Below, piece after piece: positions 4,314 through 21,464 of a DNA stretch of 64,000 bases. This stretch comes from Methanotrichaceae archaeon (GTDB lineage Archaea > Halobacteriota > Methanosarcinia > Methanotrichales > Methanotrichaceae), in NCBI GenBank assembly GCA_963803145.1, contig CAWDLW010000015.1, positions 352,001 through 416,000 on the forward strand. Reading direction: 5' to 3'. How positions within the stretch are numbered: position 1 is the first letter of the stretch; each line of letters starts with the position of its first letter. Below the pieces are notes generated by a model that did not search any database, was not told the origin of the DNA, and worked only from the letters and a program-made list of their open reading frames with translations. Both the position numbers and the translations under genes were made by a program.

Positions 4314-5110
4314 CTAGGGTGGAGATAATTCTCGAACCAAAGGGCAAGATCGGCATAATGATTGAAGCAGAGGTCATTCGGCCGGATATCATGTATGAAA
4401 AGAAGAAAGAGGAGATCGAAAGTCTGACCGTCTGGCAGGGACCGGAACGAATGCCTCTAGGCGATTTCTTTGATGTAGAGGTAATCGGAAATGGACCAGT
4501 TGAGGAGACTTCGATCCTTATCCATGGAGATGTCTCAAGAGTGAAGCGCATCGGCCAGGGCATGAAAACGGGAAAGATAGAGATCCATGGGTCGGCTGGC
4601 ATGCACGTAGGATCGGGGATGACCGGAGGCAGCATTCTTGTCAATGGGGATGCAGGTTCCTGGGCTGGCATGGAGATGAAAGGCGGCCTGCTTCGTATTT
4701 TTGGAAATGCAGGTGATCACGCGGGATCTGCCTATCGAGGAAGCTGGAGCGGCATGTCCGGAGGCAGGATTGTCATCGAAGGCGATGCCAGAAACCAGCT
4801 CGGCAACGGCTTAACCGGTGGGGAGATTGCAGTAGCCGGTAATGTGGAGAACTTTGCAGGCATTCGCCAATCAGGCGGCTTGATCCTGGTGCGAGGAGAC
4901 GCTATCCGGGGTGCAGGCGCTGAGATGACTGGGGGCACTCTAGCAGTATGCGGAAGGATCAAGCAATTCACTCCCGGATTTACGGAAATCGGCCGTGAAG
5001 AAAATCCGAAGCTTGGCGAGACGCGAGCGGAAGGAAAATTCGCCAAGTTCTCAGGGGATTATGCCATCAGCAAAAACCCCAAGGGATCGCTGTACCTTAA
5101 GGAGGTCTGA
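4310..5110 (+). CDS. fmdC: Formylmethanofuran dehydrogenase subunit C
   Basis: GXGXG beta-helix repeats (GxxMxGG), operon position. Confidence 0.95.
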   Translation: MTRVEIILEPKGKIGIMIEAEVIRPDIMYEKKKEEIESLTVWQGPERMPLGDFFDVEVIGNGPVEETSILIHGDVSRVKRIGQGMKTGKIEIHGSAGMHVGSGMTGGSILVNGDAGSWAGMEMKGGLLRIFGNAGDHAGSAYRGSWSGMSGGRIVIEGDARNQLGNGLTGGEIAVAGNVENFAGIRQSGGLILVRGDAIRGAGAEMTGGTLAVCGRIKQFTPGFTEIGREENPKLGETRAEGKFAKFSGDYAISKNPKGSLYLKEV

Positions 5111-5116
5111 GGGCCA

Positions 5117-5563
5117 ATGGAGGCCATGCTCAACCTCTTTGCGACCACGATGGAAGATGAGAAGATGATTGAAGAGTTTCTGCTAAACACTGGAAGCACA
5201 ATCGAGGAGGGAAGGCTTGCAAAGGGCGGCAGCAAGCTCACCGATGATTATACGGAGGAATGTGCAGTCTGCAATATGAATCCTGAGGATTATTCAAGTC
5301 TGGGATCTCCGCAGAAGGTCAAGATAACATCAAAGGATGGAAGGCATGGCATAGCCGTCTATGCCTATTCTGATGATTCAATTAGTCGGGGTCACGTCTT
5401 CATGCCCCGAGCCATTTGGTCCAATGTAGTCATCGATCCCGAGACGTTCTCAACTGGATCTCCACTTTACAAGGGCTCTCGTGTTCTTGTTGAGCCCACC
5501 CAGGAAAAAGTGATGAATGCTAAAGAGCTGGTAGTAGCACTCTATGCCAGGCACAGAAAATGA
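5117..5563 (+). CDS. fmdD: Formylmethanofuran dehydrogenase subunit D (start may be ATG 5165)
   Basis: LNTGSTIEEG, VFMPRAIWSN, TGSPLYKG motifs. Confidence 0.9.
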   Translation: MEAMLNLFATTMEDEKMIEEFLLNTGSTIEEGRLAKGGSKLTDDYTEECAVCNMNPEDYSSLGSPQKVKITSKDGRHGIAVYAYSDDSISRGHVFMPRAIWSNVVIDPETFSTGSPLYKGSRVLVEPTQEKVMNAKELVVALYARHRK

Positions 5564-5572
5564 GGTAGAGGG

Positions 5573-6883
5573 ATGACCTTTAAAAACATCATTTGTCCCG
5601 TCTGCGGGGCTTCATGCGATGACATCCAGGTGGATCTGACAGGAGATGCCCTGACGGTTAAGAATGCCTGCAAGATGGGTAACGCCAAGTTTCAGGAGAT
5701 TGTGAGCACCCACAGAATACGGGATCCCATGCTCAAGGATGAAGGCGATTTCAGAAAGGCTGCGTGGGATGAAGCTATACAGCGAGCAGCCGAGATTCTG
5801 GCAGGCGCAAAACGCCCTCTGATATTTATGGGCAGCGAGACCTCCTGCGAAGCCATGGAGGTCGGGCTTCATTTAGGCGAGTATCTTGGAGCTGTTGTAG
5901 ATTCCAACTCCACTGTCTGCCACGGCCCCACTGCTATGGGCATCCAGGAGGCAGGTCGTGTCGGTGCTACTGCTGGCCAGAGCAAGAACAGAGCAGATCT
6001 GGCAGTGTATTGGGGCTCGAATCCACTGGAGTCCATGCCCAGGCATATGTCGAGGTATGCCATTTATCCAAGGGGCTACTGGACAAGGCGAGGCAGGTTT
6101 GACAGAAAAGTCATAACTGTGGACCCGAGGAAATCTATCACGGCAAGAAACTCAGATCTGCATATCCAGCTCAAGCCGAACACCGACTATGAGCTAATAT
6201 CGGCTCTGCTCACATTGCTGCACGGCAAAAAGCCACACCCCTCTGTCGAGAATATCACCGGCGTCAAAATCTCCGAAATGGAAAAGATGCTGGAGATAAT
6301 GAAGAACTGCAACTTTGGCGCTATTTATGTCGGCCTGGGGATTGCCTCCTCTTTCGGCAAGCATCGCAATACGGAAGCAGCGTTCAATCTTGTTAAGGAG
6401 TTGAATGTTCATACGAAGTTCGTGATAGGAGCTTTACGGGGCCACTGCAATGTCGCCGGTTTTAACCAGATCGCTTCTTATCTCTATGGCTATCCCTTTG
6501 GTTTGGACTTCGCCCGAGGTTATCCTCGGTATAATCCCGGAGAGTATACGGCTGTAGATGTTCTGCGGGAGAAAGATGTGGACGCTGCATTGATAGTCTC
6601 AGCCGACCTGGTGTCGCACTTCCCTGCTGCCTGTGCCGAAGCGCTGGCTGATATCCCTGTGGCCTGCATTGATATTGCACCATGCCCAACTACTATGATC
6701 TCTGACGTTGTTATACCCGGAGTCATCGATGCAATGGAGTGCGATGGTACATTCTACCGTCTTGACGATGTGCCGGTCTACTTCCAGCCGTTTACGGATT
6801 CGCCATTCCAGTTTACGAAAAGCAATGAAGATACAATGAAGCAGATCTTCGAGAGGGTAAAGGCGATCAAGGGCAGTAAGTGA
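5573..6883 (+). CDS. fmdB: Formylmethanofuran dehydrogenase catalytic Mo/W subunit B (Cys ligand)
   Basis: CPVCGASCDD, VCHGP, RGHCNVAG motifs. Confidence 0.95.
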   Translation: MTFKNIICPVCGASCDDIQVDLTGDALTVKNACKMGNAKFQEIVSTHRIRDPMLKDEGDFRKAAWDEAIQRAAEILAGAKRPLIFMGSETSCEAMEVGLHLGEYLGAVVDSNSTVCHGPTAMGIQEAGRVGATAGQSKNRADLAVYWGSNPLESMPRHMSRYAIYPRGYWTRRGRFDRKVITVDPRKSITARNSDLHIQLKPNTDYELISALLTLLHGKKPHPSVENITGVKISEMEKMLEIMKNCNFGAIYVGLGIASSFGKHRNTEAAFNLVKELNVHTKFVIGALRGHCNVAGFNQIASYLYGYPFGLDFARGYPRYNPGEYTAVDVLREKDVDAALIVSADLVSHFPAACAEALADIPVACIDIAPCPTTMISDVVIPGVIDAMECDGTFYRLDDVPVYFQPFTDSPFQFTKSNEDTMKQIFERVKAIKGSK

Positions 6884-6937: not shown

Positions 6938-6977
6938 AGTCAAACAGGCGTACCCTGCAGCAAGCTGCGGGGTATTC
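6938..6977 (-). mobile_element. Minimal IS200/IS605-type end remnant (single hairpin)
   Basis: Reverse complement GAATACCCCGCAGCTTGCTGCAGGGTACGCCTGTTTGACT matches both ends of the IS200 at 12.9-13.5 kb. Confidence 0.65.
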
Positions 6978-7139
6978 AATAAAATAAAGAATTTCACGAT
7001 GTTTCCGAGGTTGTTCCGAGTTAACCGAGTCGCAATATCCCGAATCGGAATCTTTAACCATCAAGCACAATCATGATAGTTGACAGAAATGTTTAATCAA
7101 GATAGACCATCGATGAGAATAGTCTGAGCATTGATTGAA

Positions 7140-7413
7140 CCCACATCCCGCAGGTAGGTCATCAAGAATTTGGATTTTTTTGATTATACAAATTGAGATT
7201 TAATATTTAATTATGCACCCATGAATGATAAAGATAAAAACAAAAAATAAAATATGGCCCAAGCATTCCAACAAGTCTTTAGAGAATCTGATGCTATAAT
7301 TATTGGAGGATATAATTCCGGCTCAAAACAAAGTGACCGCATCTGCGTGGTTTTGCAGAAAATCGTTATCAAGAAAAATGCTAAGCCTTAGAGTTTTACC
7401 TGCGGGATGTGGG
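7140..7413. mobile_element. 274-bp MITE (IS1634-like ends)
   Basis: Perfect 17-bp TIR CCCACATCCCGCAGGTA / TACCTGCGGGATGTGGG; 6-bp TSD ATTGAA at 7134-7139 and 7414-7419; no ORF. Confidence 0.8.
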
Positions 7414-8075
7414 ATTGAAGATGCGCTGGATGTTCAATTCGCCAAGGCAGACTGATTGATACCATGATACTATGAGTAAAACCAATATGTTCTATTATTG
7501 TCCCTGGAATTATTTACTTTTAGGTTGTACACCTACCTCATTTCAATATAATAAGTTACACTTACTTTTGGGAGTTAACCAGCAATAAGTATCTTTCTCA
7601 AAAGCATCATTTTTTACTGCAAATGCTACTGCCCTGCATCCACTACAGTTCTTGATGTATAAGCAATTTGAGCATTTACCAACTTCTTTTCTATTTCTTA
7701 AATCATCAAGTAAACTAGAAGAATACCATATATCAAAAAATGTAGATTTTGCTAAATTTCCTATTATTATTGGCAATCTTCTACAAGCCATAACATCTTC
7801 ATTTGGCATTAAGGCAAGACCTGAGAAGCCTGCAGCACACCCACCCCCTATAATATCCTGGTATTCCTTAAATTCATCTTTTAATAATGTCCATAGCGGT
7901 CTTCTCATATCGATTTTCAATTTAGAACCAATTATAATTAATTCTATTTGTTTTTTAATTATGTTTCTATAAAGTTCATGCGTTTCCTCTGGATTCAACA
8001 TTAATTCTAAGAGTTTTTCTCCCCTTCCCTCGGGAACCAAAGGAGTGATTCCTAGTGTCGATACATTTAAAGAGT

Positions 8076-9606
8076 GAACATGCTCAATAGCAGGTAAAAT
8101 TAACCGACCTTTGGGATCATATCGGCTAATCTTGGCATAGAAAAGCTATTAGAATAAATATCCTTGACATACAAATAGAATCTAACCTTTTGCTTTCTGC
8201 AAGTATCAAGTATAGAAAGCAAATTCCCCCAGGCTGCTTTGCCTAACTCAGATCTAGTGCCATAGCTGATCTTTCTTTTTAGCACACCCTCGCGAACAGC
8301 GATTTCAGATCCATTGTTGTGAAGAGGGATCTCCGGAAAATCGAGCATAAGGAGCAACTTATCTCGATCGCTATGGGTCGATGCTATCCGCTTGTCCAGT
8401 TCGAAGTATCCTGTAGTCGTTGTAAACAGGGATTCAAACCTTCGTTCAATTAACCTTCTGAGATCAATCTTTGGTTGGGATTTGAATTTCTTCAATAAAT
8501 CGTAGAACTTCCAAAGACTGGCAATGAATTTTTCCAGAATTGATCGGTGAAGGTCCAAATAAGGTTTCAACTTAATGTAATGCTGTATCTCGTGTAACCA
8601 GCAGTGACCATGATGGCAAGCTATGCCATCATATTGATGAGCACTATCGGTTACCATCGGAGTAGGCGTCAAGACTCCATCCAATAATCCGAGCAGGTCT
8701 CTAATTGTTTCTCGCTTCCTGTTTTTCTCGATAAAATAAGTAGAAAATTCTTCATTGCCGATATAATGCATATCGCCATTCTTGCCTGAATGCCTTGCGC
8801 CAGTACTATCGGTTTGGAAATACTTGGCGCACCTCATACCGGTTTCAAATATTGCTGATTTCTCAGCTGAGAAGACTTCGCTCTTCTCTTTAGTCAGTAT
8901 ATTTGAGATTTCGCCTTCTGAGATGAAGATACCAAAATCAGTTAAGATACTATGGATCTTGTTTTCAGTCACTCTGCCTGCATAATAAAATGTAGCAATG
9001 AGCGCCTTTAGGTCGCTGCCAAATTGGGTGTTCTGAATTTCCTTTGGAAGCTCAGCATAATAATGCTTGTCCAGTGACTTGGAATAATAGTGTCCTCGCC
9101 GGTATTCGATATTATCAGTCTGTAGCTGGATATTTTGGATTATTACAGGTTCATACCCAAGGTATACAGCATCCGGCGGCAAGATATCGGACTCGATATC
9201 TAACCAAACTACTCGATTGATCTTTATCTTGGGATTCTTCGATCCCTTTGACCATTTCTTAGACTTCTCTGTTGATGCTTGTTTTGGTTCCAGATTAGGG
9301 ATGTTTGGCGCGATCTTCGGTTTGCCCTTCAAACCTTTTAATCTTGCTATTTCATCACCTTGTTGTTGGATTATCTCATTTTGCCGCCGTATCACTTGAG
9401 CTTGATATTCTATAAAGTTGAGCAACTTTCGGAATAGCTCTTTAGTTGCCTCCTTGTCATCGAAGTCGATCTTATCGATATCAAGGGTTATTATTTCTTC
9501 TTCAATTGCCTTATCCACAAGTATACTTATTTAGTTTTCTCAGCATTTTTAATTTCTGAACGATACGTCTTAATTTGCTGATCTGAACAAGCTATTGAGC
9601 ATGTTC
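8076..9606 (-). mobile_element. IS66-family element (single-ORF type)
   Basis: 16-bp TIR GAACATGCTCAATAGC; 8-bp TSD TAAAGAGT at 8068-8075 and 9607-9614. Confidence 0.9.
8100..9518 (-). CDS. IS66-family transposase
   Basis: N-terminal coiled coil, DSTG, CWLHE, HNNGSEIAVREGVLKRKISYGTRS motifs. Confidence 0.85.
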   Translation of the reverse strand: MDKAIEEEIITLDIDKIDFDDKEATKELFRKLLNFIEYQAQVIRRQNEIIQQQGDEIARLKGLKGKPKIAPNIPNLEPKQASTEKSKKWSKGSKNPKIKINRVVWLDIESDILPPDAVYLGYEPVIIQNIQLQTDNIEYRRGHYYSKSLDKHYYAELPKEIQNTQFGSDLKALIATFYYAGRVTENKIHSILTDFGIFISEGEISNILTKEKSEVFSAEKSAIFETGMRCAKYFQTDSTGARHSGKNGDMHYIGNEEFSTYFIEKNRKRETIRDLLGLLDGVLTPTPMVTDSAHQYDGIACHHGHCWLHEIQHYIKLKPYLDLHRSILEKFIASLWKFYDLLKKFKSQPKIDLRRLIERRFESLFTTTTGYFELDKRIASTHSDRDKLLLMLDFPEIPLHNNGSEIAVREGVLKRKISYGTRSELGKAAWGNLLSILDTCRKQKVRFYLYVKDIYSNSFSMPRLADMIPKVG

Positions 9607-10395
9607 TAAAGAGTCACATAGCTCAATAAATTCCTCAATTTCTTGGTAATTATTTTTGTGAAATACAAACATAACTGCTATCTTAATACTAGCAGAATTT
9701 AGAAGTTCTATAGCCTTTAGCACTTTATTATAGACCCCTTTGCCTCTAATAAAGTCACAAGTGTCTTCTTTTGCACCGTCAAGACTTATTTGTATATTAT
9801 CTATTTTACTTTTTTTAAGCTTGGTGACAATAGTCTCGTCTATTAAAGTGCCGTTGCTCAATATATTTTTTCTTATTTCTGGAAATTTTTGGTTACAATA
9901 GTCCAATAAATTGAAGAACTCATCCCCAAGAATAAATGGCTCTCCTCCTGTAAAGGCAATCTTCGGAACTTTTTTTATTTTTTTACAGAATTTTGCGAAA
10001 TCTGATATTATCTTTTTTTTCCGATCAAAATTAGTTTCTGTTCCTATATATTCTAAATTCTGATAACAATGTTTACACTTAAGATTACATTTATCAGTAA
10101 GATGCCATTGTAAGATAAATGCCTGTTGAAACTGGTTTTGCTTTTCAAAATTATGGTTCATTCGGTCTCACCTAATTTAAATAAGACATATTTATTCATG
10201 CCACGAATAATTAAAGGTTCTCTATTCACAATTCAATCATTACAAAGAGATTGTTTTATTAAACTTTTCCTAACTATAGAGGATTCGCATGAGAACCACT
10301 TCATCGACACCGCGTAAGGAGCATGTCAGCCACATGCACCCGATCATTCTTCCTGATTTCATAGCCACCCCCGTTAAAGGAGGTCTATCCTGAAG

Positions 10396-10602
10396 TTATA
10401 AGCATCTCTGGCGTGTGGAATTGGTCGGTGACGATACAAATATCTTGTCTCTCGATGGATTGATCCAATTCGCTTGTAAGCACTTTGAGGAAAACGAATG
10501 GCAATCAATAATAAGGCAGCGCTCAAAATTGTTCCAATATTTTTTGCACTTATTCTCTAAGCGCCTCATTATACGGCCTGAAGCAGGTGGCACGCATTTC
10601 AT
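10396..10602 (-). pseudogene. Fragment resembling N-formylglutamate amidohydrolase
   Basis: CLIIDCHSF motif within a short, frameshifted fragment. Confidence 0.35.
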
Positions 10603-10699
10603 CCTTTTAATATGAAAATGATTTGATCCATATCTATGCAGTTTCCGCTTTTGCCACGAATATCCAGCCTTTTCAAGTTATCTCAATATCGATCGCGCT

Positions 10700-10825
10700 C
10701 GCTTCTTCAAGACTCTTTCGCAAATTGCTTCAGTTCCTATTATCATGATAAGGCTCACCTTTATTGAGGACAAAATAGATATCGATCAGTATACGATGCG
10801 CTATGGCAACAAGAGCCCTTATTTG
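10700..10825 (-). pseudogene. IS110-family transposase C-terminal remnant
   Basis: Translates ALVAIAHRILIDIYFVL, typical of IS110 C-termini; boundaries approximate. Confidence 0.45.
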
Positions 10826-10839
10826 CCACTCCTTCTGGC

Positions 10840-11435
10840 AATATTGTCGTAGCAGTGGATTCAACCTGCGTAAAGGTCACGAGAAAGGAGAATAGGTAGG
10901 AGAGAAACATGGTACTGAGCCCAGAGGTTAGATCAAGTTACATATCGCTGTTGATATTGAGACGAAGAAACCAATATCTTTCGAGATCACTGATGAGAGA
11001 ACGCCTGACGTAAGATGGTCAGGCCTCAACTGAATGGCGTATTGATGAAGGATTCTATAATGGATACTGGCTATGATACTGAAGTCGTATTTAAATTTAT
11101 AAAGGAGTGACATTGGCTAATATCAACGTCAGAAAGAATGCTATTGTTAAGGCGGGTACTGAGATGGCTGAGTCAGTTCTGGAATTAAAGAAATATGGAT
11201 ATGGTAGCTGGAAAAAGATTCAAAAATATAGCAAGAGATGGGCAGCAGAAAGCTTCTTTTCTGTGATCAAAAGAATCTTTGGAAAAACTGTTAGATCTAA
11301 CTCTTTAGAAGACATGATAATGTAAGTAGCAGGCGGATAGCGCCTTTTAATATAATATTATCATGGTTAGATATTGAAATTTATTCATTAAATACATTAT
11401 CGTATATCAATAATTATTCAATTATCCAACACAGT
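10840..11435 (+). mobile_element. Degraded IS5-family element
   Basis: VAVDSTCVKV, KLHIAVDIETK and YSKRWAAESFFSVIKRIFG fragments with stops/frameshifts; TTATCCAACACAGT end. Confidence 0.7.
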
Positions 11436-11547
11436 GTGGTATATGAAGTCAACGGTTTCGGGACTCTACAATTTAGGAATTCTCAAGCGAAATATTCATT
11501 AATACAGACAACGAAAGTACAAAGGTTATAATTATTGGAGATTAAAA

Positions 11548-11649
11548 ATGAAATATGAAAAACCTGAAATCACGGAGCTAGAACTAAATGACGAAATAGA
11601 TGATGATGAAATAAGCATAAATTGCGAAGGGTGCGGATGTGGAACTTAG
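11548..11649 (+). CDS. Putative RiPP precursor peptide, 33 aa: MKYEKPEITELELNDEIDDDEISINCEGCGCGT
   Basis: Manual translation (below ORF-track cutoff); GGAG RBS; YxxPxI RRE-type leader, acidic spacer, CxxCxC core; directly upstream of a PqqD-like gene. Confidence 0.8.
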   Translation: MKYEKPEITELELNDEIDDDEISINCEGCGCGT

Positions 11650-11790
11650 TCAAATGGCGGCGATGCGCCCCACTGCAAGCAGCGGAGCATGCAAGGCACT
11701 GCCGCATAATTCACAGTTGGCTAACTGATCCCACCTACGTTGGATGAGAATGCTCTTTTATCCAAGCCACACCAAGCTGTAGGGTATTAC
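11648..11790 (-). mobile_element. Non-autonomous IS200/IS605 derivative (about 140 bp)
   Basis: Reverse complement starts TAATACCCTACAGCTTGGTGTGG (left-end hairpin) and ends GCATCGCCGCCATTTGACT (right end), matching the IS200 at 12887-13495. Confidence 0.7.
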
Positions 11791-11836
11791 TTTTAAAATA
11801 AAATGCGAAAAACCTGAAATTAAGGAATAGGGACAT

Positions 11837-12088
11837 ATGGAAATTTCCAGGTCGATTAAGATGGTTAGGCGACTTGATAAAATACTACTATATTCGTCAG
11901 AGGAAGGAGATTTATTCCAGATAAATGAAATAGGCGCTTTTATTTTAGAAAAAATAAGAACGGGGAAAAATGAGAGAGAAATAGTTTTAGAACTGGAAAA
12001 AGAAACATATGAAAAAGAGGATAGAATAAAAGAGGATGTAAAAGAGTTTTTAGGAATCCTTAAAGAAAAAGGCATAATAAATGATTGA
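11837..12088 (+). CDS. PqqD-family RiPP recognition element (RRE)
   Basis: 83 aa; LFQINEIGAFILE...EIVLELEKETY...IKEDVKEFLGILKEKGII is the PqqD pattern. Confidence 0.85.
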   Translation: MEISRSIKMVRRLDKILLYSSEEGDLFQINEIGAFILEKIRTGKNEREIVLELEKETYEKEDRIKEDVKEFLGILKEKGIIND

Positions 12089-12887
12089 TAGTAGATTAAT
12101 TGGTATTCTTGATAGAGATGTATTAATTCTTATAAAAATTTTGAAGAGGATGCAAAAGGTAGGTATAGAAAATTCACGGCAAACACAAGTTGCAGGTGCA
12201 TTATTGAAATTGGGTCTGGATAAAGAGGATGAATCTCTACAAAAAGTCCTTCAGGTATCCATACAAAGAACCGAGGAAAATAAAATCTCTGATATGAGCG
12301 AAGCAATAAATTGTCTGAAATTGTTTTCCTTTTATAAAAGATGTTTTGAAACAAGTGTAACGAAACTAGTAAATATTATTGTAGATTGTTTGAATGATGA
12401 TGGAGGATTGGGGAAATTCAAAGGAGATAGAAGTAGAATTCCCATTTGTTGGAGTTTATTAGAATCTTTTTACTACCTCAACAAGGAGGAAGATAATAAT
12501 ATTGTAGAAATTATTAATTGCATGGAAAGAGAGTGGTCGAATGATATGAAATTCGGTGGATTAAGCTATAAATGTGCTGGAATACTAATTGCAGCCAATT
12601 ACTATCCCCTATTTGATAATGAATTTATTGAGAAATCATTGAATTGGTTAATAAATGATCAATCCGAAGATGGTGGATGGAGTGCCAAGAAAGGTTTTTC
12701 TGTTGGTTCAGTTCCGTCTTATACTGGATTAGCATTGCGGGCACTAACAAACTATGGAAAAAGCGATGAAGTTGAAAATACAATTTCACATGGAATAGGT
12801 TGGCTAATAGCAACAAGGCAAAGGGGTTTATGGAAAGAACATCCGATAGAAAGAGCATTAATAGAAGTAGATTTGTTTTTATTTTAA
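12081..12887 (+). CDS. Prenyltransferase/squalene-cyclase repeat (alpha-alpha toroid) protein; extreme C-terminus possibly clipped by IS200
   Basis: QW-like repeats CLNDDGGLG, WLINDQSEDGGW, TGLALRAL, GIGWLIATRQRGLW; overlaps pqqD stop. Confidence 0.7.
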   Translation: MIDSRLIGILDRDVLILIKILKRMQKVGIENSRQTQVAGALLKLGLDKEDESLQKVLQVSIQRTEENKISDMSEAINCLKLFSFYKRCFETSVTKLVNIIVDCLNDDGGLGKFKGDRSRIPICWSLLESFYYLNKEEDNNIVEIINCMEREWSNDMKFGGLSYKCAGILIAANYYPLFDNEFIEKSLNWLINDQSEDGGWSAKKGFSVGSVPSYTGLALRALTNYGKSDEVENTISHGIGWLIATRQRGLWKEHPIERALIEVDLFLF

Positions 12888-13495
12888 CGAATACCCCACA
12901 GCTTGCTGTGGGGATGGCAAACTAACAGGGGATTAATAAGGTATTTAGTTCTAGCAGGCGCTATCTGAATTAATGCTGGAATTGCGGCATGCAAGCCATT
13001 GTGTTTACAGAATCAGATATCATATGGTGCTTTGTGTAAAATATAGAAAGAAATTACTTATCGATCAGGAAAGGATAGACCTTTTTAAGAATGTATGTAT
13101 TGAGATTGGTGAAAGATATTGTTTTGAATTTGATGCTATTGGGACAGATGGAGACCATGTCCACGTTTTTGTTGGATCAGCGCCAAAATATGCGCCATCT
13201 AAGGTTATGCAAGTTATAAAAAGTATAACTGCAAGGCAAATTTTCAGAGCCTTTCCTGAAATCAGAAAACAACTTTGGGGTGGAGAGTTTTGGAGTGATG
13301 GTGGCTATATTGGTACCGTAGGTGAGGGTATAACTGCTGAAATTATAAGAAATTATATTGAAAGGCAAGGATCGATTGAGGAGAAAGAAAGCTATAATCA
13401 AATGAAGCTGTTTGAATTTGAATAAGCGGGGCTATTGCGGCGGCGCCTCGCATGCCCCGCAGCTTGCTGCGCGGGTGCGCCGCCGCAGTTTGACT
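12887..13495 (+). mobile_element. IS200 element (tnpA only)
   Basis: Subterminal hairpins CCCCACAGCTTGCTGTGGGG and CCCCGCAGCTTGCTGCGCGGG; no TIR/TSD; ends approximate. Confidence 0.85.
12973..13425 (+). CDS. tnpA: IS200/IS605 Y1 HUH transposase
   Basis: DHVH (HUH), LWGGEFWSDGGY, catalytic Tyr in RNYIERQ. Confidence 0.95.
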   Translation: MLELRHASHCVYRIRYHMVLCVKYRKKLLIDQERIDLFKNVCIEIGERYCFEFDAIGTDGDHVHVFVGSAPKYAPSKVMQVIKSITARQIFRAFPEIRKQLWGGEFWSDGGYIGTVGEGITAEIIRNYIERQGSIEEKESYNQMKLFEFE

Positions 13496-13551
13496 CAATC
13501 AAATTTCATCCCAGCATAATAATAACATTTAATACGAATTATTATTATAGT

Positions 13552-14316
13552 CTATTCAGTCTTCCACCAATCTCGATTTCCTGCAATCGCATCAGTTAGA
13601 AATTTCTTATGTCTTTCAATTTCTTCATAGATTTCTCCATTCTTACAAATGAGGCCATGTCCTGGTACTAATATTTCGATCTTCATCTCTTTTAATTTTT
13701 CAAGCGATCGTATCCATAGTTCCCACAATTTATGGTTTCCGAAACGCAATGTAGGTAAATATTTTGAGTAAATCAAATCGCCTACATAAATTACTCTCTC
13801 TTCAGGCATATAAACCGAAATATTAGTATCAGTATGTCCAGGCGTCAGAATTAGTTCCACTTCGATTCCACCTACACTTAATGATGTATCTTTTTCGATA
13901 AATTTATCTGGATTACAAACGATAGTCTTAGCAAAAAATTTTTCTATTTTCTTGGAGTCCTTCTGCTCTTTGAATCCTGATGAGAGTATATCGTTCATCC
14001 GGTTAATCATCGATTCCATATTCATATGTTTATTATAAGCAATCATATTATATGCAATAATTTCGGCTCCGATTTCTTTGAAAATTGAATTGCCAAGCGT
14101 GTGATCAAAATGGAGTTCAGTATTGATCAAATACTTTATTTTATTCTGGGGTGCACTTACCTTAGCGTAACCTAAAATTGTTTGAGCTGATAGATAATTA
14201 AATGCGGAGTCGATAATCAATGTCTCTCCATCGCCTGTTATAAATCCGGCATTTACACTGAAACCAGTTTCATGAGCCAAACCAGTTACCGCAAAACAAT
14301 GTCTACTAAGTTCCAT
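13552..14316 (-). CDS. Metallo-beta-lactamase-fold hydrolase
   Basis: TELHFDHTLGN, PGHT, GDL, PGHG motifs. Confidence 0.9.
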   Translation of the reverse strand: MELSRHCFAVTGLAHETGFSVNAGFITGDGETLIIDSAFNYLSAQTILGYAKVSAPQNKIKYLINTELHFDHTLGNSIFKEIGAEIIAYNMIAYNKHMNMESMINRMNDILSSGFKEQKDSKKIEKFFAKTIVCNPDKFIEKDTSLSVGGIEVELILTPGHTDTNISVYMPEERVIYVGDLIYSKYLPTLRFGNHKLWELWIRSLEKLKEMKIEILVPGHGLICKNGEIYEEIERHKKFLTDAIAGNRDWWKTE

Positions 14317-14459
14317 AATTTGGTCTCCTTGCGGATTTAGAGATTAAATGATAGGATTACTATTAACTCTTGCTATTGAGCAGCTAATCCAATGTCGCTA
14401 ATCACGTCGATATTATCCATTTTCCTTTAATTATATCTTATATTGATTATTTTTTGCCA

Positions 14460-14860
14460 GTTTCCGCTAGTCTAGAGACATCCGAGGCAAAGATATTTCC
14501 AACACAAATTTGGAGACAGTGTCTCTAGCCCTTCTAGTCGAAACGCCCTGTAGATATGATTCTGCTATTGCAATTCTCAAAGACTTTTTATTCGGGATGA
14601 TCAATCGGGTATGTGCGATTGGACGGGAAGCGCGCGAAATTGTGGCTTACTCAGAATTACTTCTCAGTGAAGGATCTGGAGGGATCTCTTTCTGGTGCCA
14701 TTACGTCGCGTTCTCCTTCTGCCAGAATGTTCATAGGGTTGGCCTGAATCTGGTTCAATGCCTCCTGTTGCATCACTTTATTCAAGAACCAAGTAATCAG
14801 ATTCTTCATCCTATTACTACGATCAACAAGGCAATCTTCTGCTAAATCCTCAATATCATG
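14460..14860 (-). pseudogene. IS256-family transposase N-terminal remnant
   Basis: Minus-strand fragments MKNLITWFLNKVMQQEA and KSLRIAIAESYLQGVSTRR in different frames; boundaries approximate. Confidence 0.65.
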
Positions 14861-15037
14861 GTTCAGTGTCCTTCCGTTATGTCCAATGGCCCAGGGGATA
14901 CAGGGAGATATTATCTAGTTATCCTACCACTAATTTACAGCAAAGTGGTACGCTGCCAGAATTGTTGACATTCAGAGTGGCAATTCATAGACGCCATACA
15001 CGACCTAATGACGAGGGAAAAGAGAAACCTTTATTTA

Positions 15038-16120
15038 TAGTTAATCATTGAGCTTATTGCCCTATAGATACATTTAATAATTAATGCGTGAAAATACATA
15101 GGCATGGGTAGAAAACCTATAATAATTAGGCATATATCAAAGATAGACCTTGATAAATTATATAAAAAAGAGACTGATCTAAGGATTAAGGAACGGTTAT
15201 TGGCAATAATACATTTATATGAAGGGAAAAACGTATATGAGGTAGCTGATATTTTAAAAAGGGGCGAGAGGACAATAAAATATTGGTTAAGCAGATGGAA
15301 TAATCAAGGCTATAATGGATTGACACCAAAGAATAGAAATGGCAAAAAGCCAAAGATGTCTCTTGATGAATGGGATAGAGTTATTAAAGAAATTGAAGAC
15401 AAAGGAATGACGATAAAAGACGTATTAAAATATGTAAGGGATACAAGAGGTATAGATTTTTCATATAAATATGGCTGGCGAATTTTAAGAGTAGTGAAAA
15501 AAGTTAAGTATGGGAAACCATACATCAGAAATGAAAAGAGGCCTGCAGATGCAGAAAGTTTTTTAAAAAAGGATAAAATCAGTGCTGACCACTGTTACTG
15601 ATCCTGTTATAGGATTTCTTGATGAAAGCTCTTTACAACAGCGCCCTAATACACGTAGAGTCTTAAACACTCATTTAATAAATTATAAACCTGGAAAGGT
15701 TAGATCAAGAACTATTTTTGGATTTATAGCATTAAATGGCAATGATGAGGTTATGGTTTCCAACTCCTCTAAGAAGGAAGCGTTGATGGCATTTGCTCAA
15801 AATATAAGAAATAATAATATTATGAGGCCAATTTGTATACTTTTAGATAATGCTAGAATTCATTTGGCCAAGAAATTTAGAAAACTAGCTGAGGAAATCG
15901 ATATTCACTTAATTTATAATATCCCCTATTCACCAGATTTGAATCCTATAGAATTCGGTTGGAAGGATTTCAAAAGAGAGATCGCCAAATACACTGATTT
16001 CGATGAAGCTATTATAGCTAGCCAAGATTGCGCTTTAGAAATATTTTATTCCAAAAAGGATGGATATTCAAAGTCCTGGGTGGAGCGATTTCTTAGTGCA
16101 AAAAGCTAGGAGATTAACTA
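15038..16120 (+). mobile_element. IS630-family element, copy 1 (orfA 15104-15601, orfB 15582-16109, probable -1 frameshift)
   Basis: TIR TAGTTAATC/GATTAACTA, TA duplication, HTH plus DDE (DES, LDNARIH, PYSPDLNPIE); TTTTTTAAAAAAG slippery site. Confidence 0.92.
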
Positions 16121-16154
16121 TAATAACGACAGGGCAAGTACCCTTAGATGAGAT

Positions 16155-16634
16155 ATGGTCGACGATAATGTGGCTGATACGAAGATATATCTTGAATTGG
16201 ATGATGAACTTAAAAACGTTCTAGAAGATAACGAACTAGATATTTCCGATTTACTGCAAAACGAGGGAATTGAAGCAGTTGTCAAGCCAGGGACGGCACC
16301 GTACCAGACAGAAGATAATGATGCCAGAGATAAGGAACCAATTTCGATCATTATAGCCTGTAGTATTGCGATAGTTCCTATAGTATGGGCTATCTCCAAA
16401 GGATTAAGTACATTGTACAATAATAAGCCCATAGTTGAAAAAATTAGCGAACTTGTGGAGTTAAGGGACGCGAATGATAACATATTGATGAATAAAGACG
16501 GAAATCCAATTTTTAAAAAAATAGAAAGGTATGTGATACTTCAACCTAAATTAGAAGAAAAGCTGGAGATTAAGGCAACGTTTGATCTTAGAAATGGAAT
16601 CGTCATCCAAATCAGTTCAGAAACGAAAAGCTAA
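16155..16634 (+). CDS. Single-TM protein preceding a caspase (EACC1-like architecture)
   Basis: Central hydrophobic helix ISIIIACSIAIVPIVWAI; first gene of the caspase/NB-ARC run. Confidence 0.55.
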   Translation: MVDDNVADTKIYLELDDELKNVLEDNELDISDLLQNEGIEAVVKPGTAPYQTEDNDARDKEPISIIIACSIAIVPIVWAISKGLSTLYNNKPIVEKISELVELRDANDNILMNKDGNPIFKKIERYVILQPKLEEKLEIKATFDLRNGIVIQISSETKS

Positions 16635-16676
16635 CTGCGTAGTGATCCAGTTTAGAGTTTAATTAAGGTGGCTGCA

Positions 16677-17879
16677 ATGGCTTATAAGGCATTTATCATT
16701 GGTATTAACACACTAGGCTTGAAATATTGTGATAGAGATGCAGATCTGATGAAATATGCCCTCTCAAAACGCGGCTATAATGTAAATGTAATAAATAAAG
16801 AAGCGAAAAAGTATGATATCATGCCGAAATATATCGATATATTGGGAGATTGCCGAATAGTAGATACCTTAATTTTCTTTTTTTCAGGTCATGGCAAACC
16901 CATTGGGCGCGAACTTTTTTTATTTACCAAGGGAGATGGTTCGGACGAATTAAACAAGATTCCAATTAGTGAGATTTTGGGGCCTTTGGAACGGTGCGCC
17001 GCCAAAAACAAACTTGTAATCTTAGATTGTTGCCGGGCAGGAAGACTAAATGGTAGTGGTGAGTGGAATTGTCCTGAACCGGGGGATTTCTATCGCATTC
17101 TTGTTGCTGCGAATCCTCTAGAAAAGGCCAAAGAGATCGATGATTTGCGAGCAAGTTTTTTAACGCATAAAATTCATTCAGCACTTACAAATCCTCCCGA
17201 AGCTATCTTGGACAAAGGAAAAATTCGAATAAACAACCTTTCTGATTGGCTACGTAAGCAGGCGGACTTACATAATGTGTCATCATTGATAAAAGTCCCC
17301 CGACCATATCTGATTGGAGCCGATAGGGCGGATTTTGAGATCTGCATTCTTGAAAAGTCACTTATCGAGCCAATGGAAGGCAAAACCATAATCAATGATA
17401 GGCAATTGATTGATGAAATAAGAGAATGGAAAGTGATTCATACAAAATCGCAATCCCTTCAAGATCATCTAGCCGAAATGATTCGACATCTTCATATATC
17501 CCGATTTGAACCCTTTGGTTCAAAGGGTTTTAATAATTCAATGCAAAGCGCGGAAAATGAATGGATACGATGCGCTTCTTATTTTAAAGAGATACTGGAG
17601 GATGTTAAGGGATTTCGCTACATTGCGGCGAATGAGGCAGTTCTACAGTGTTTACCATACGCTACAGAACCATCTATTAAACCTATATTGGATCGGATTA
17701 GAATAGCAAAGAGCCCTGAAGACGCTTTAGATATCCAACGACTGATAGTCGATATTAAACAAGTTATAGATGAAATGCTTCATGTAGCTGATAAACAAAT
17801 TGTCTTATTAGTTGATAAGCTAGCAATTAAATCATCGTCCGAAACGATTGAGGCAAATCATGTCGTTACAGAAGCTTGA
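16677..17879 (+). CDS. Caspase-like (peptidase C14) protease with helical C-terminal domain
   Basis: AFIIGIN, FFFSGHG (His) and ILDCCRAG (Cys) dyad. Confidence 0.88.
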   Translation: MAYKAFIIGINTLGLKYCDRDADLMKYALSKRGYNVNVINKEAKKYDIMPKYIDILGDCRIVDTLIFFFSGHGKPIGRELFLFTKGDGSDELNKIPISEILGPLERCAAKNKLVILDCCRAGRLNGSGEWNCPEPGDFYRILVAANPLEKAKEIDDLRASFLTHKIHSALTNPPEAILDKGKIRINNLSDWLRKQADLHNVSSLIKVPRPYLIGADRADFEICILEKSLIEPMEGKTIINDRQLIDEIREWKVIHTKSQSLQDHLAEMIRHLHISRFEPFGSKGFNNSMQSAENEWIRCASYFKEILEDVKGFRYIAANEAVLQCLPYATEPSIKPILDRIRIAKSPEDALDIQRLIVDIKQVIDEMLHVADKQIVLLVDKLAIKSSSETIEANHVVTEA

Positions 17880-20800
17880 AAGTAATTATAGAAATTTTTT
17901 GAACTCATATAAATCTGAGAAACAGCTGGACATCCTTGAAGCTAAGAATCTTCTTAATACTTTTCGACAATCTGGCGAATTTATCAGCAGCCCAGAGGAA
18001 AGAGAGATTTTATCTGTATGGTGCAGGACAATTGCAGACATAATCTTTGAGAATACAGGGGAATATCTTCCTGTGAGAATCTTTCCTTTAGATAACATCA
18101 CAATATCATCTGAACCTGCCTCGATCCCCCTCCCTCGCCAGATACCTCCACCGCCAGCTGACTTTAAAGGCCGTAAGGACGAAATCATAAATATCCTATT
18201 ATGCTTCGATAAGGTAAGACCCATCATCGGTCTGCGTGGTATGGCTGGCGTTGGCAAGACTGCACTAGCACTTGTTTTGGCAGAGAGGCTAAAAGACCGT
18301 TTTCCTGATGGGAATCTCTTTCTAAACCTGCAAGGAACGACTAGTAATCCCCTTAGAGCAGCTGATGCTATGGCCCAAGTCATCCATTCGTATTACCCAA
18401 CTAAACGCCTGCCAGAGAGAGAAGACGAGTTGCGTGGGCTATATCTCTCAGTTCTGTCTGACAAACGAGTACTGCTTTTATTAGACAATGCGAAGAATAG
18501 AGAGCAGGTTGAGCCGTTGTTGCCTCCTTCAAGCTGCGCCGTTTTAATCACCTCAAGAAATAAATTTTCTTTGCCAGGCTTAACGGCACGAGATCTGGAT
18601 GTTTTGAGTTCTGCAGAAGCTCGTGAACTGCTCCTCGAAATCGCCGGACGGATTGGCGATCGATCTGACAATTTGGCAAATCTTTGCGGAAATCTTCCCC
18701 TGGCCCTTCGAAATGCTGCAAGCGTCTTGGCCGAGAGGGGAGACATAGATGTGGCTGATTACGAACGCTGCCTAAGTGACAAAAAGATGAGGCTAGATCT
18801 AGTATATGCTTCATTCAGTTTGACTTACGATCTTTTGTCTCCAGTGAAAAAGAAGCATTGGTGTCGTCTTTCGGTCTTTCCGCAAGACTTTGACCTAAAA
18901 GGTGGAACAGCAGTTTTGAAGATGGCTCTTGAACCATCTGCTAAGGTATTGAGCGACTTAGTTAAATGTAGTCTCGTGGATTTTATTCGCCCCGTAGATT
19001 CCGGAGAGGGACGTTACAAGCTGCATGACTTGGCTCGCCTTTTCGCTGAATCACGCCTGGAATCCAAGGAGCGTGACGATGCTGAGCATTGCCATGCTAA
19101 GTATTACTTGATAATGCTCTCTTCTGCGGAAACTCTCTACAATAAGGGCGGGGAAAATGTCATGGAAGGGCTGAAAATTCTCGATCGAGAATGGGCGAAT
19201 GTGCAGGCCGGACAGGCATTTGCCGTAAAAAATGCCAAAAAAAATGCGGATGCAGCTGCCCTCTGCATTGAATACGCTGATCCAGTGGGTATCCTTTCAT
19301 TGCGATTGCATCCCAACGATCTAATTCACTGGCTTGAGGTTTCTTTGGATGCAGCTAAGCAATTAAAAAGATCAGCTCAAGAAGGCATCATTCTAACGAA
19401 GATAGGATATACCTACTTCCAACTGGGCAAGGTTCAAGAGGCAATCCATCTCCATGAGAAGGCACTGACTATAAGCCGCAAGATCGGTGCCAGACGAGGT
19501 GAAGGAACCGTTCTGGGAAACCTGGGACAGGCCTATGCTGCTCTGGGCGAGACACGGAAGGTCATCGAATATTCTGAACACGCGCTGGCCATCGACCGTG
19601 AAATCGGAAACAAAAAAGGGGAAGATATCCGCTTGGGCAATCTGGGCTGTGCTTATTATGATTTAGGCGAGATGCATAAGGCCATCGAGTACTACGAGCA
19701 GGCGCTGACCATCGACCACGAGATTGGAGACAGAAGGAGCGAAGGAAAGCATCTGGGCGATATGGGATTGGCTTATGCCAGTCTGGGAAAGACTCGCGAA
19801 GCCATCGAGTACTACAAGCAGGCCTTGAATATTGCTTGCGAGCTCGGCGACCTAAGGACTAAAGGAAGACACATGGGCAATTTGGGCGGTGCTTATTACG
19901 ATCTAGGCTATATTCGTAAAGCGATCGAGCACTATGAGCAGGCGCTGGCCATCAGCCGCGAGATCGGGAACCCATGGATTGAAGGAGAAAATCTATGTAA
20001 TTTAGGGAATGCCTATGCTGCCTTAGAGGATACTAACAAGGCAATTATAGTTAATCCACGTAATTTTTACCTCATAGATACCCTTAAATAATTAATATAC
20101 GATATAGCCGTTCATGGGCAGGAAACCTGTAATTGTAAGACATATCTCGAAGGTAGAATTAGATCAATTGTATAAAGATGAGAGAAACATAAGAATTAAA
20201 GAACGGCTACTAGCGATAATACATTTATACGAAGGAAAGAATGTATATATAGTAGCTGATATTCTTAAACGAAGTGAAAAGACAATAAAGAATTGGCTAA
20301 GCGATTGGAACAAACAAGGATATGATGGATTGATACCACAGAATAGAAACGGCAAAGAACCAATGATATCTTTTGATGAATGGGATAAAATTATCGAAGA
20401 GATTGAGGACAAAGGAATGACTATAAAAGAGGTAATAAAATATGCAAAAGACACAAGAGGCGTAGAATATTCGTATAAAGGTGGTTGGAAGATTTTAAGA
20501 TCAATAAAGAAAGTCAAATATGGTAAACCATATATTAGAAATAATAAGAGGCCTGTTAATGCAGAAAGTTTTCTAAAAAAAGGATAGATTCAGTAATAAC
20601 AACAGTCAAAGAACCTATTATTGGATTCCTTGATGAAAGCTCTTTGCAACAGCGACCTAATACACGCAGGGTTTTAAACACCCATATGCTAAATTATCAA
20701 CCTGGAAAAGTTAGGTCTAGAACTGTTTTTGGGTTCATTGCATTGAATGGAAATGATGAAGTTATGGTCTCTCACTCATCCAAGAAAGAAGATTTAATGA

Positions 20801-21464
20801 TCTTCGCCCAAAAATTGAGAAGTAACAATATTATGAGACCAATATGTATTGTCCTAGATAATGCTAGAATACATCTAGCTAAGAAGTTTAGGGCATTAGC
20901 CCACGAACTTGATATCCATTTAATATATAACGTGCCATATTCCCCTGATTTAAATCCTATAGAGTTCGGTTGGAAGGATTTTAAAAGAGAGATATCAAAA
21001 TATACTGATTTTGATGAAGCTATTGAGGATGCCCAAGATTGCGCTTTACAAATATTTTATTCCAATAAAGATGGATACTCTAAGTCTTGGATAAAGCAGT
21101 TTATAAGGTAAAAAGTTGGGAGAATGACTATAAATACTATGAGCAGTCGCTTGGGATTGTTCGCATGATCGGGGATCGAAAGAATGAGGGCAATGCTCTT
21201 TGTAACCTTGGAAAGGTCTATGCCGCCCTTGACGAAGTCTGCAAAGCGATCGAGCACTACGAGCAATCGTTAGAGATCTTTCGCCGGATCGAATACTGCC
21301 GAGGAGAAGGTGATGCCCTATTCAACATGAGCTTAGCGCATGAAAAGATTGGCCATCGACAGGAGGCAATCAATCATGCGAAGGAAGCACTAAGAATTTT
21401 CGAGCAGATCGAAAGTCCATATTCTGAGAAAGCGCGGCAAAAGTTGGCGGAATGGAAAGGATAA
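17860..21464 (+). pseudogene. STAND NB-ARC ATPase with TPR array, interrupted by IS630
   Basis: GMAGVGKT Walker A, LLLLDNA Walker B, ITSR, LPLAL, LHDL; TPRs resume in frame after the IS (KAI-KYYEQSL). Confidence 0.88.
20048..21130 (+). mobile_element. IS630-family element, diverged isoform (orfA 20114-20587, orfB to 21111)
   Basis: Same length (1083 bp) and similar TIRs as copy 1, TA duplication, homologous transposase. Confidence 0.9.

Follow-up and report, generated by a model that had tools for sequence, protein, structure and literature searches.

The DNA considered here is a stretch of 64,000 nt from a Methanotrichaceae archaeon (the window; contig CAWDLW010000015.1, positions 352,001 to 416,000), and what lies in an AT-rich island of it is most probably an insertion sequence (IS)-riddled, no longer functional and horizontally acquired copy of a rare four-part maturation cassette of the type that makes peptides synthesized by the ribosome and modified after translation (RiPPs). 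The core of the cassette consists of a radical S-adenosylmethionine (SAM) enzyme with a SPASM domain (rSAM/SPASM), one to three tandem precursor peptides of 27-33 amino acids (aa), a PqqD-type RiPP recognition element (RRE) and a ~275-aa alpha/alpha barrel protein that is called the toroid below. Gene content, the conservation of the cassette in other loci, a natural gene fusion and the insertion events legible in the window are observed; leader binding by the RRE, thioether chemistry and any catalysis by the toroid are deductions. Through comparison with other loci, what began as one broken locus becomes a defined family with a four-gene core and 21 precursors that share a leader/core grammar. 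Characterised archaeal RiPPs are very few.

A metagenome scan yielded nine loci with full-length relatives of the toroid (L040-L048), and synteny was derived from all-against-all BLAST of the open reading frames (ORFs) of the window and these nine, 10 loci in all. In every one of them the toroid gene is immediately preceded by the PqqD gene. All six loci that reach far enough upstream have next to these a family-specific rSAM/SPASM gene, at 42-87% identity from one locus to another; the other four, whose contigs stop within 75-250 nt of the precursors, are uninformative on the rSAM gene. Between the rSAM and PqqD genes lie the precursor ORFs, 1-3 per locus and 20 over the 10 loci. L040, a relative at 84-88% identity, is the closest related locus. 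Six more toroid/rSAM pairs have matching longest-contig values (91365, 11766, 10588, 8650, 20963 and 3940), and the members of each pair presumably sit on a shared contig. Because nine independent metagenome loci repeat it with conserved precursors, the gene arrangement is far beyond chance.

An earlier reading of the window, made without database searches (the sequence-only reading), had proposed a RiPP cluster of five components. For precursor, RRE, rSAM/SPASM and toroid it has held up: they recur together elsewhere (10/10 loci for the RRE-toroid pair, 6/6 for the rSAM gene, 21/21 peptides for the precursor pattern), and rSAM and toroid occur as a natural fusion, described below. The fifth component, a metallo-beta-lactamase (MBL)-fold hydrolase, fails the synteny comparison: of the seven loci extending downstream, just two, the window and L040 (where it is 85% identical), have it after the toroid, and for that reason it is neither a core member nor acceptable as a PqqB-like core enzyme.

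When the window peptide was searched against 1.84 billion representative proteins, only two other matches came back; together with 19 locus ORFs (one identical duplicate removed) they make up an alignment of 21 precursors. In all 21, M1, Y3, P6 and a CxxCxC motif (C26, C29 and C31 of the window peptide) are invariant, so that the YxxP..CxxCxC pattern, which the sequence-only reading had suggested seeking in other genomes, is kept throughout. The leader opens M-x-Y-x-x-P-x-(L/I) and the core is the last 6-11 residues, in two tail types: a short one, with CxxCxC followed by 1-2 residues, and a long one, CxxCxCxC(G)(T/S/D). The window precursor ends in CEGCGCGT. None of the NCBIfam models matches any of the 21 precursors, even at E up to 10.

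The copy of the cassette in the window is dead or dying, hit by four mobile-element events. Every gene named in the sequence-only reading is found at its place, with its domain verified by Pfam and NCBIfam scans of the proteins in the ORF list (scores compared with curated cut-offs). The features are as follows.

7543..8067, minus strand: rSAM/SPASM maturase, 3' fragment with the SPASM domain; ORF as called, 7543-8040
8076..9606, minus strand: IS66-family insertion, 1531 bp; transposase 8100-9518, DDE_Tnp_IS66 58.1 bits
9592-10161, minus strand: ORF called for the 5' half of the rSAM gene, its last 4 codons and stop supplied by IS66
9607..10161, minus strand: rSAM/SPASM maturase, 5' fragment; Radical_SAM PF04055, 93.8 bits, E 1.7e-26
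10400..11325 (approximate boundaries), plus strand: decayed IS4/IS5-type transposase remnant; ORF 11107-11325
11548..11649, plus strand: precursor peptide, 33 aa, MKYEKPEITELELNDEIDDDEISINCEGCGCGT; YxxP(I/L) leader, C-terminal CxxCxC core
11650..11790, no strand assigned: GC-rich repeat element, 141 bp, resembling a miniature inverted-repeat transposable element (MITE); further genomic copies; missing from L040
11794..11827, plus strand: remnant of a second precursor gene, with only the leader start left
11837..12088, plus strand: stand-alone PqqD-type RRE, 83 aa; PqqD PF05402, 50.8 bits, cut-off 23.4, E 2.1e-13
12081..12887, plus strand: toroid, 268 aa, single-domain (alpha/alpha)6; SQHop_cyclase_C PF13243, 29.7 bits, cut-off 26.1
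12879..13494, plus strand: IS200/IS605-type element; TnpA 12973-13425, Y1_Tnp 115.5 bits
13552..14316, minus strand: MBL-fold hydrolase, convergent with the toroid; Lactamase_B 96 bits

The IS66 element, with perfect 16-bp terminal inverted repeats (8076-8091 and 9591-9606) and 8-bp target duplications (8068-8075 and 9607-9614), splits the rSAM gene precisely, and an uninterrupted rSAM gene was not found in this genome. Excising the element and one duplication in silico, a check that the sequence-only reading had proposed, rejoins the two halves in a 359-codon frame with zero stops. The genome holds four copies of this IS66 at 99-100% identity (window 8076-9606, C27:100265-101795, C8:309064-310594 and C27:47352-48881), and on that account it appears to be currently or recently active. 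The IS4/IS5-type remnant separates the divergent promoters of the rSAM and precursor genes, whose spacer measures 1386 bp (10162-11547) as against 68-85 bp in L041, L046 and L048; its ORF at 11107-11325 matches DDE_Tnp_1 weakly (18.9 bits, below the cut-off of 23), and its sequence is essentially unique within the genome. The MITE-like element has three further genome copies at 72-78% identity (C17:195061-195152, C17:16205-16308 and C20:130753-130869) and is missing from the homologous stretch of L040, which has three intact tandem precursors where the window has the element and a precursor remnant. That remnant, a direct repeat of 11542-11576 (83% identity) that also matches the first part of each of the three L040 leaders at 88-91% identity, has its ATG changed to ATA and reaches a stop after 10 codons. 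The PqqD and toroid genes overlap by 8 nt, and the IS200/IS605 element has entered the final codons of the latter as a 616-bp insertion relative to L040 (homology picks up again at 13495); 12-13 non-conserved C-terminal residues have been lost to it. Palindromic sequences of the type CCCCGCAGC...GCTGCGGGG, related to the MITE, occur at 6953-6988, 12878-12913 and 13449-13477, the first of them marking the island boundary directly past the Fmd operon.

Since the window copy is non-functional, it cannot serve as an experimental starting point without repair, and its value lies in the family that it reveals. Of that family, the intact loci L041, L045 and L048 suit expression. The window itself is a record of active IS elements dismantling an acquired biosynthetic island in a methanogen.

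In the restored reading frame, the CX3CX2C motif of the rSAM enzyme is formed by Cys 25/29/32, the SPASM domain is recognised by two models (PF13186, 30.3 bits against a cut-off of 21.5; TIGR04085, 35.5 against 27), and seven cysteines lie in the SPASM region (262, 280, 317, 320, 326, 329 and 347 of the 359 codons). From these cysteines the enzyme would presumably contain two auxiliary clusters in addition to one radical SAM cluster. Its 5' fragment is 43-58% identical to the rSAMs of L041, L042, L045, L046 and L048 and its 3' fragment 45-63% identical to those of L041, L045 and L048. A search with the rSAM enzyme returned 25 proteins (P0026-P0050) at 44-100% identity, a count about equal to the size of the toroid family; the next ones are at 42% or less. 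There is a sister rSAM/SPASM family (P0051-P0145) of ~340-365 aa, ~35-42% identical and mostly from bacterial metagenomes, the sources of which name Aminicenantes, WOR-3 and Bacteroidales; no NCBIfam cut-off is reached there either.

Neither the window halves nor the intact relatives reach the cut-off of any curated NCBIfam rSAM family. The best curated model is TIGR04340, the rSAM enzyme whose partner is an ACGX-repeat peptide: L041, L045 and L048 score 187.6, 178.2 and 178.0 bits, and the two window halves 107.2 and 77.4, against a cut-off of 400. That model is of comparable length (341 positions) and is matched over its full extent, but the cassette tails are CxxCxC, with no ACGX repeats. 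Scores with other peptide maturase models are 74.9-95.3 bits for PapB (cut-off 340), 98-102 for StsB (625), 70.9 for AlbA (850), 94-106 for PqqE (381) and 113-130 for MftC (265). Like the ranthi- and sactipeptide systems (PapB/freyrasin, CrpC), the cassette combines an rSAM/SPASM with a full set of auxiliary-cluster cysteines, an RRE and a substrate that is Cys-rich in its C-terminal region. CrpC of Methanococcus voltae, functionally the nearest precedent among methanogens but a different system, has a fused RRE and installs ranthionine on the large Cys-rich protein CrpA, which shows methanogen SPASM enzymes capable of that chemistry (PMC13692751). The likeness has its limits: the RRE that is fused in CrpC is a separate protein in the cassette, the cassette substrates are of 27-33 aa, with a single CxxCxC tail and without Cx2-5(D/N/Q)-type repeats, and the toroid is an obligatory partner. 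The rSAM/SPASM enzyme, which has no RRE of its own, would carry out radical chemistry on the Cys-rich tail; thioether (sactionine or ranthionine) cross-linking is, by analogy, the likeliest form of it and is proposed only tentatively, as something a little short of an even prospect.

How the peptide is held for that chemistry may be read from lasso-peptide systems. The best NCBIfam match of the window PqqD is the lasso PqqD chaperone model (33.3 bits, under the cut-off of 70). The sequence that lasso-peptide RREs recognise has been characterised as YxxP (PMC12710340), and the cassette resembles lasso systems in its stand-alone PqqD-type RRE and in the invariance of Tyr and Pro at YxxP spacing near the leader N-terminus. 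It differs from them in lacking, among the window genes and conserved neighbours scanned, both a lasso cyclase and a B2 transglutaminase-type peptidase; only a sister cassette in genome G261 (see below) has a short (225-aa) Asn_synthase-like gene. By lasso-peptide precedent, the stand-alone RRE would bind the YxxP leader, and we infer binding of the two from that analogy. An intact cassette would offer its RRE one to three tandem precursors, each with a C-terminal core that carries the invariant C-x-x-C-x-C.

The toroid is the unaccustomed component. Of 22 proteins retrieved from 5.8 billion protein clusters, 21 clearly belong to the family, at 33-100% identity to the window protein. An AlphaFold2 model built on the 21-sequence alignment (pLDDT, the score predicted for the local distance difference test, 93) has twelve helices. 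Compared by VIA-align with 48,161 chains, it matches 8paj_A best (Z 23.9, rmsd 2.9, 257 residues aligned), with 1gsz_A (Z 23.4), 8zg0_A (23.1) and MstE 6sbb_A (20.9) among the further matches and transcobalamin (19.1) and the beta subunit of rat farnesyltransferase, 2zir_B (16.3), below them. The first ranks are occupied by single-domain proteins resembling squalene-hopene cyclase (SHC) and by class II terpene cyclases, and Foldseek agrees. The family profile matches SHC at E 7.6e-16, and the nearest Protein Atlas clusters are generic SHC/Prenyltrans toroid families (scores 0.93-0.96, to be taken as leads only). The prenyltransferase/cyclase fold that the sequence-only reading had assigned is confirmed, both by the SQHop_cyclase_C score (29.7 against 26.1) and by the SHC-like model. 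With the Pfam Prenyltrans model (PF00432, cut-off 26.5) the window toroid scores 25.5 and the fusion protein P0146 26.7.

With class II terpene cyclases the toroid has in common the (alpha/alpha)6 barrel and QW/DGGW-type repeats, but it has only one domain, of 268-285 aa, and its partners are an RRE and an rSAM enzyme. The DxDD motif is missing in 18 of the 21 toroids (a D-x-D-D/E-like string in the other three is not a conserved column), and membership of the class II terpene cyclases was rejected because DxDD is not conserved. The beta subunit of protein prenyltransferases has an Asp/Cys/His triad of Zn ligands. Candidate counterparts of these residues exist in the toroid as D116, C165 and H254, but C165 is Ala in 2/21, and no alpha-subunit-like gene was seen in the loci. 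The LanC fold, for its part, has a Cys-Cys-His zinc site; LanC chains are not found among the 50 listed Foldseek or VIA matches. What the family does conserve is ~40 invariant positions, which include D116-x-S118-R119, E151, D155, S162-Y163-K164, D197-G-G-W and E253-H254. The invariant polar residues are all at helix starts and are read as one putative binding or catalytic pocket at the mouth of the barrel.

That the toroid works together with the rSAM enzyme is indicated by P0146, a natural fusion protein of 770 aa with Radical_SAM and SPASM domains and a C-terminal toroid of this family. Its toroid part matches the toroid family at E 2.9e-86 (40% identity), and its rSAM part shares 28% identity with the enzyme of L041 (E 1e-43). 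A triple fusion was considered and is not claimed, since the linker of P0146 has no match to PqqD (hhalign of the PqqD profile, probability 0.4). Contact with the RRE is suggested by complex prediction. The toroid modelled with PqqD and precursor reaches a score of 0.64 (runs of 0.40, 0.64 and 0.64), as against 0.23 for the best of three controls. The 0.64 mark is met by 116 of 157 solved complexes and by 2 of 215 mismatched pairs, a calibration that is only rough because this was a three-chain job run with its own alignments. The runs share at least 70% of contacts, and the pLDDT of the partner is at least 85. In the modelled interface, toroid residues 11-22 (the N-terminal helix) and the 44-51 loop meet PqqD residues 5-28; of the leader, only residues 11, 13 and 14 are among the listed contacts with the toroid, and the Cys-rich core is placed without confidence.

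The sister cassette was found in 1 of 400 other genomes sampled from the phylum, G261, which belongs to another archaeal family (L071, G261:C56 93-3187). Its gene order is rSAM/SPASM, PqqD, a 55-aa precursor, a 338-aa toroid and the 225-aa Asn_synthase-like protein. The precursor has a YEKP leader and a CxxCxxCxxC tail, and the toroid aligns with the family profile at an hhalign probability of 99.8%. None of 65 other genomes of the family of G261 has the cassette, which adjoins a restriction-modification gene (type IIG/Eco57I-like). In P0147, a 653-aa protein from an Aminicenantes metagenome-assembled genome (MAG), a sister-clade toroid (hhalign 99.3%) is fused to a domain resembling class II aminoacyl-tRNA synthetases (aaRS; PF00152, 116.9 bits). 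Given this fusion and the Asn_synthase neighbour in G261, adenylating enzymes seem to partner the sister clade of toroids. The D-x-S/G-R-I and (S/T)-Y-K motifs are kept in sister-clade toroids.

The picture that these observations suggest is of a toroid that would dock on the leader-bound RRE, in the model via its N-terminal helix and 44-51 loop, and would then perform or assist a second step on the peptide that the leader holds in place. The role may be catalytic. That the toroid is specifically a transferase of S-alkyl or prenyl groups is doubtful, a proposal that we would call unlikely at best and perhaps quite improbable. Quite improbable, too, is the larger idea of a new RiPP class in which a barrel of terpene-cyclase/prenyltransferase fold, recruited by a lasso-type RRE, acts on a C-terminal Cys triad already cross-linked by the rSAM enzyme. 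Its product could possibly be an archaeal mini-lipopeptide, S-alkylated (prenylated) and thioether-bridged; the methyltransferase of L041 and L048 might then serve in carboxyl methylation. Were this idea true, such a modification would be the leader-guided counterpart, in a prokaryote, of the CaaX/CXC prenylation of eukaryotes.

It is also conceivable, if somewhat unlikely, that the toroid is not an enzyme and acts as an adaptor or scaffold that presents the tail of the leader-bound peptide to whichever catalytic module is paired with it: the rSAM enzyme in this family and an adenylating enzyme in the sister clade. Fusion to two unrelated catalytic domains, rSAM/SPASM in P0146 and class II aaRS-like in P0147, is what one would look for in such a protein. 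Its position beside the gene for an Asn_synthase PP-loop protein in G261 and a docking model that sets the RRE on the toroid point the same way, as do a DxDD motif that is not conserved and a C165 that is not invariant. An adaptor sits less easily with the ~40 invariant positions, many of them polar, around one barrel mouth, which are more typical of an active site or a site for a specific ligand, and with the retention of the D-x-S/G-R-I and (S/T)-Y-K motifs in the sister clade. Whichever role applies, a toroid partner backed by synteny, fusion and a docking model offers a handle on new enzyme chemistry or on the presentation of peptides to rSAM enzymes.

A further alternative concerns the product, which might stay in the cell as a peptide-derived cofactor or metal binder made by the logic of pyrroloquinoline quinone (PQQ) and mycofactocin, the Cys triad serving as a metal or redox site. 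The parts list is that of the PQQ and mycofactocin pathways, in which an rSAM/SPASM and a separate PqqD-like chaperone likewise serve a tiny precursor that is modified towards its C-terminus. A core of merely 6-11 residues at the extreme C-terminus, neighbours that vary (APH-like kinase and methyltransferase, GNAT, MBL) and the absence of a conserved transporter, immunity gene or leader protease in the 10 loci would all suit an intracellular product. The cassette precursors nevertheless lack the Glu/Tyr or Val-Tyr motif, the other pathway genes are absent, the toroid has no counterpart in those pathways, and the scores with the PqqE and MftC models are far under cut-off. Sporadic spread (1/105 and 1/66 genomes in the two families) in mobile AT-rich islands is a better fit to a trait of conflict or communication, and the presence of several divergent precursors in one locus is a typical trait of RiPPs of the bacteriocin-like kind. 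On balance we regard a cofactor-like product as unlikely. Finally, a chance juxtaposition in mobile DNA, in which the 33-aa ORF would be no real gene and the rSAM a cofactor enzyme of heme/AhbD/NirJ type, with no link to peptides, could appeal to a region packed with IS elements and to AhbD and NirJ among the best rSAM matches, but is made exceedingly improbable, and contradicted already by synteny, by the same four genes in the same order in nine independent loci, by the invariant peptide positions, the fusion and the sister cassette, and by tetrapyrrole model scores that are all below half their cut-offs.

Several points weigh against the reading of the window as a decayed RiPP-type maturation cassette, or at least against its more specific parts. 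Beyond the window and G261, every member is a metagenome or MAG contig. No member of the cassette has an observed chemistry. The models nearest to the rSAM enzyme include those for the tetrapyrrole enzymes AhbD and NirJ beside those for peptide maturases. The toroid carries no recognised catalytic motif, DxDD being missing as already described, and C165 is replaced by Ala in two of the 21 members. The docking score is the confidence of the model in its own prediction and not a measurement, and the aaRS-like and Asn-synthase partners of the sister-clade toroids fit an adaptor as well as a catalytic role. It is also unusual for a secreted RiPP that no protease or transporter is conserved across the 10 loci.

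The cassette as a whole is apparently undescribed: a familiar RiPP theme, rSAM/SPASM with RRE, to which an unprecedented toroid partner has been added. The sequence-only reading had spoken of an undescribed class, and this is consistent with the lack of any curated NCBIfam family at cut-off and with a literature search in which no paper describing the combination of RRE, rSAM/SPASM and SHC-fold toroid was found (subscription journals and supplementary tables, such as those of the 15,000-rSAM compendium, PMC10288494, lay outside its scope). A survey of 2025 notes that rSAM-type clusters are predicted in large numbers in archaea while identified products are scarce (PMC12144867).

The cassette came to this genome from elsewhere and is now decaying, to judge from the AT-rich island in which it sits, from related loci of like GC content (28-40%) and from the absence of the toroid in the 104 other genomes examined from the family of the host. 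The AT-rich island noted in the sequence-only reading is plain in the GC profile of the window, with values of 0.33-0.41 across ~7000-18000 and 0.49-0.53 in the flanks. Formylmethanofuran dehydrogenase C/D/B genes make up one flank and FdhD/FdhA the other; the host is a methanogen-type archaeon, since McrA is encoded on the same contig. L041 is likewise archaeal, its contig carrying the genes of two ribosomal proteins, L44e and S27e. In 185,579 species genomes a pattern scan met no orthologue, only short repeat-level matches of at most 81 residues, mostly from Planctomycetota. Four public DNA runs, all from one study, cover only 8076-9593, 11648-11682 and 12883-13495 of the window, which are parts of IS66, of a REP-like element and of IS200; the cassette genes are uncovered in those four runs, and no RNA run is listed with the locus.

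Outside the four-gene core, the neighbourhood of the cassette changes from locus to locus. The MBL meets no NCBIfam cut-off, its best match being SoxH_rel_PQQ_2 (99.9 against 280). A ~190-aa helical-repeat protein is encoded near the cassette in L041, L042 and L045, and an APH-like kinase together with a SAM methyltransferase in L041 and L048. A GNAT gene is present in L041 and L047, and a second radical SAM protein and a PHP-domain protein in L041; L048 also has a URO-D/MtaA-family protein. The accessory genes span 4637-6378 and 9401-11829 in L041 and 4808-6312 and 8824-10528 in L048.

The island holds more than the cassette. A caspase-domain (Peptidase_C14) gene at 16668-17879 is followed by one for a 747-aa STAND-like NTPase/TPR protein at 17848-20091, for which the best NCBIfam matches are AfsR and HaaT, both far under cut-off; together the two resemble a conflict-system pair. 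L040 bears a Trypco1-domain gene in their place. Two IS630-family transposase genes, each broken into two ORFs, lie at 15104-16109 and 20114-21111, and IS256-like fragments at ~14467-14850 complete the picture of the island as a dense landing pad for IS elements.

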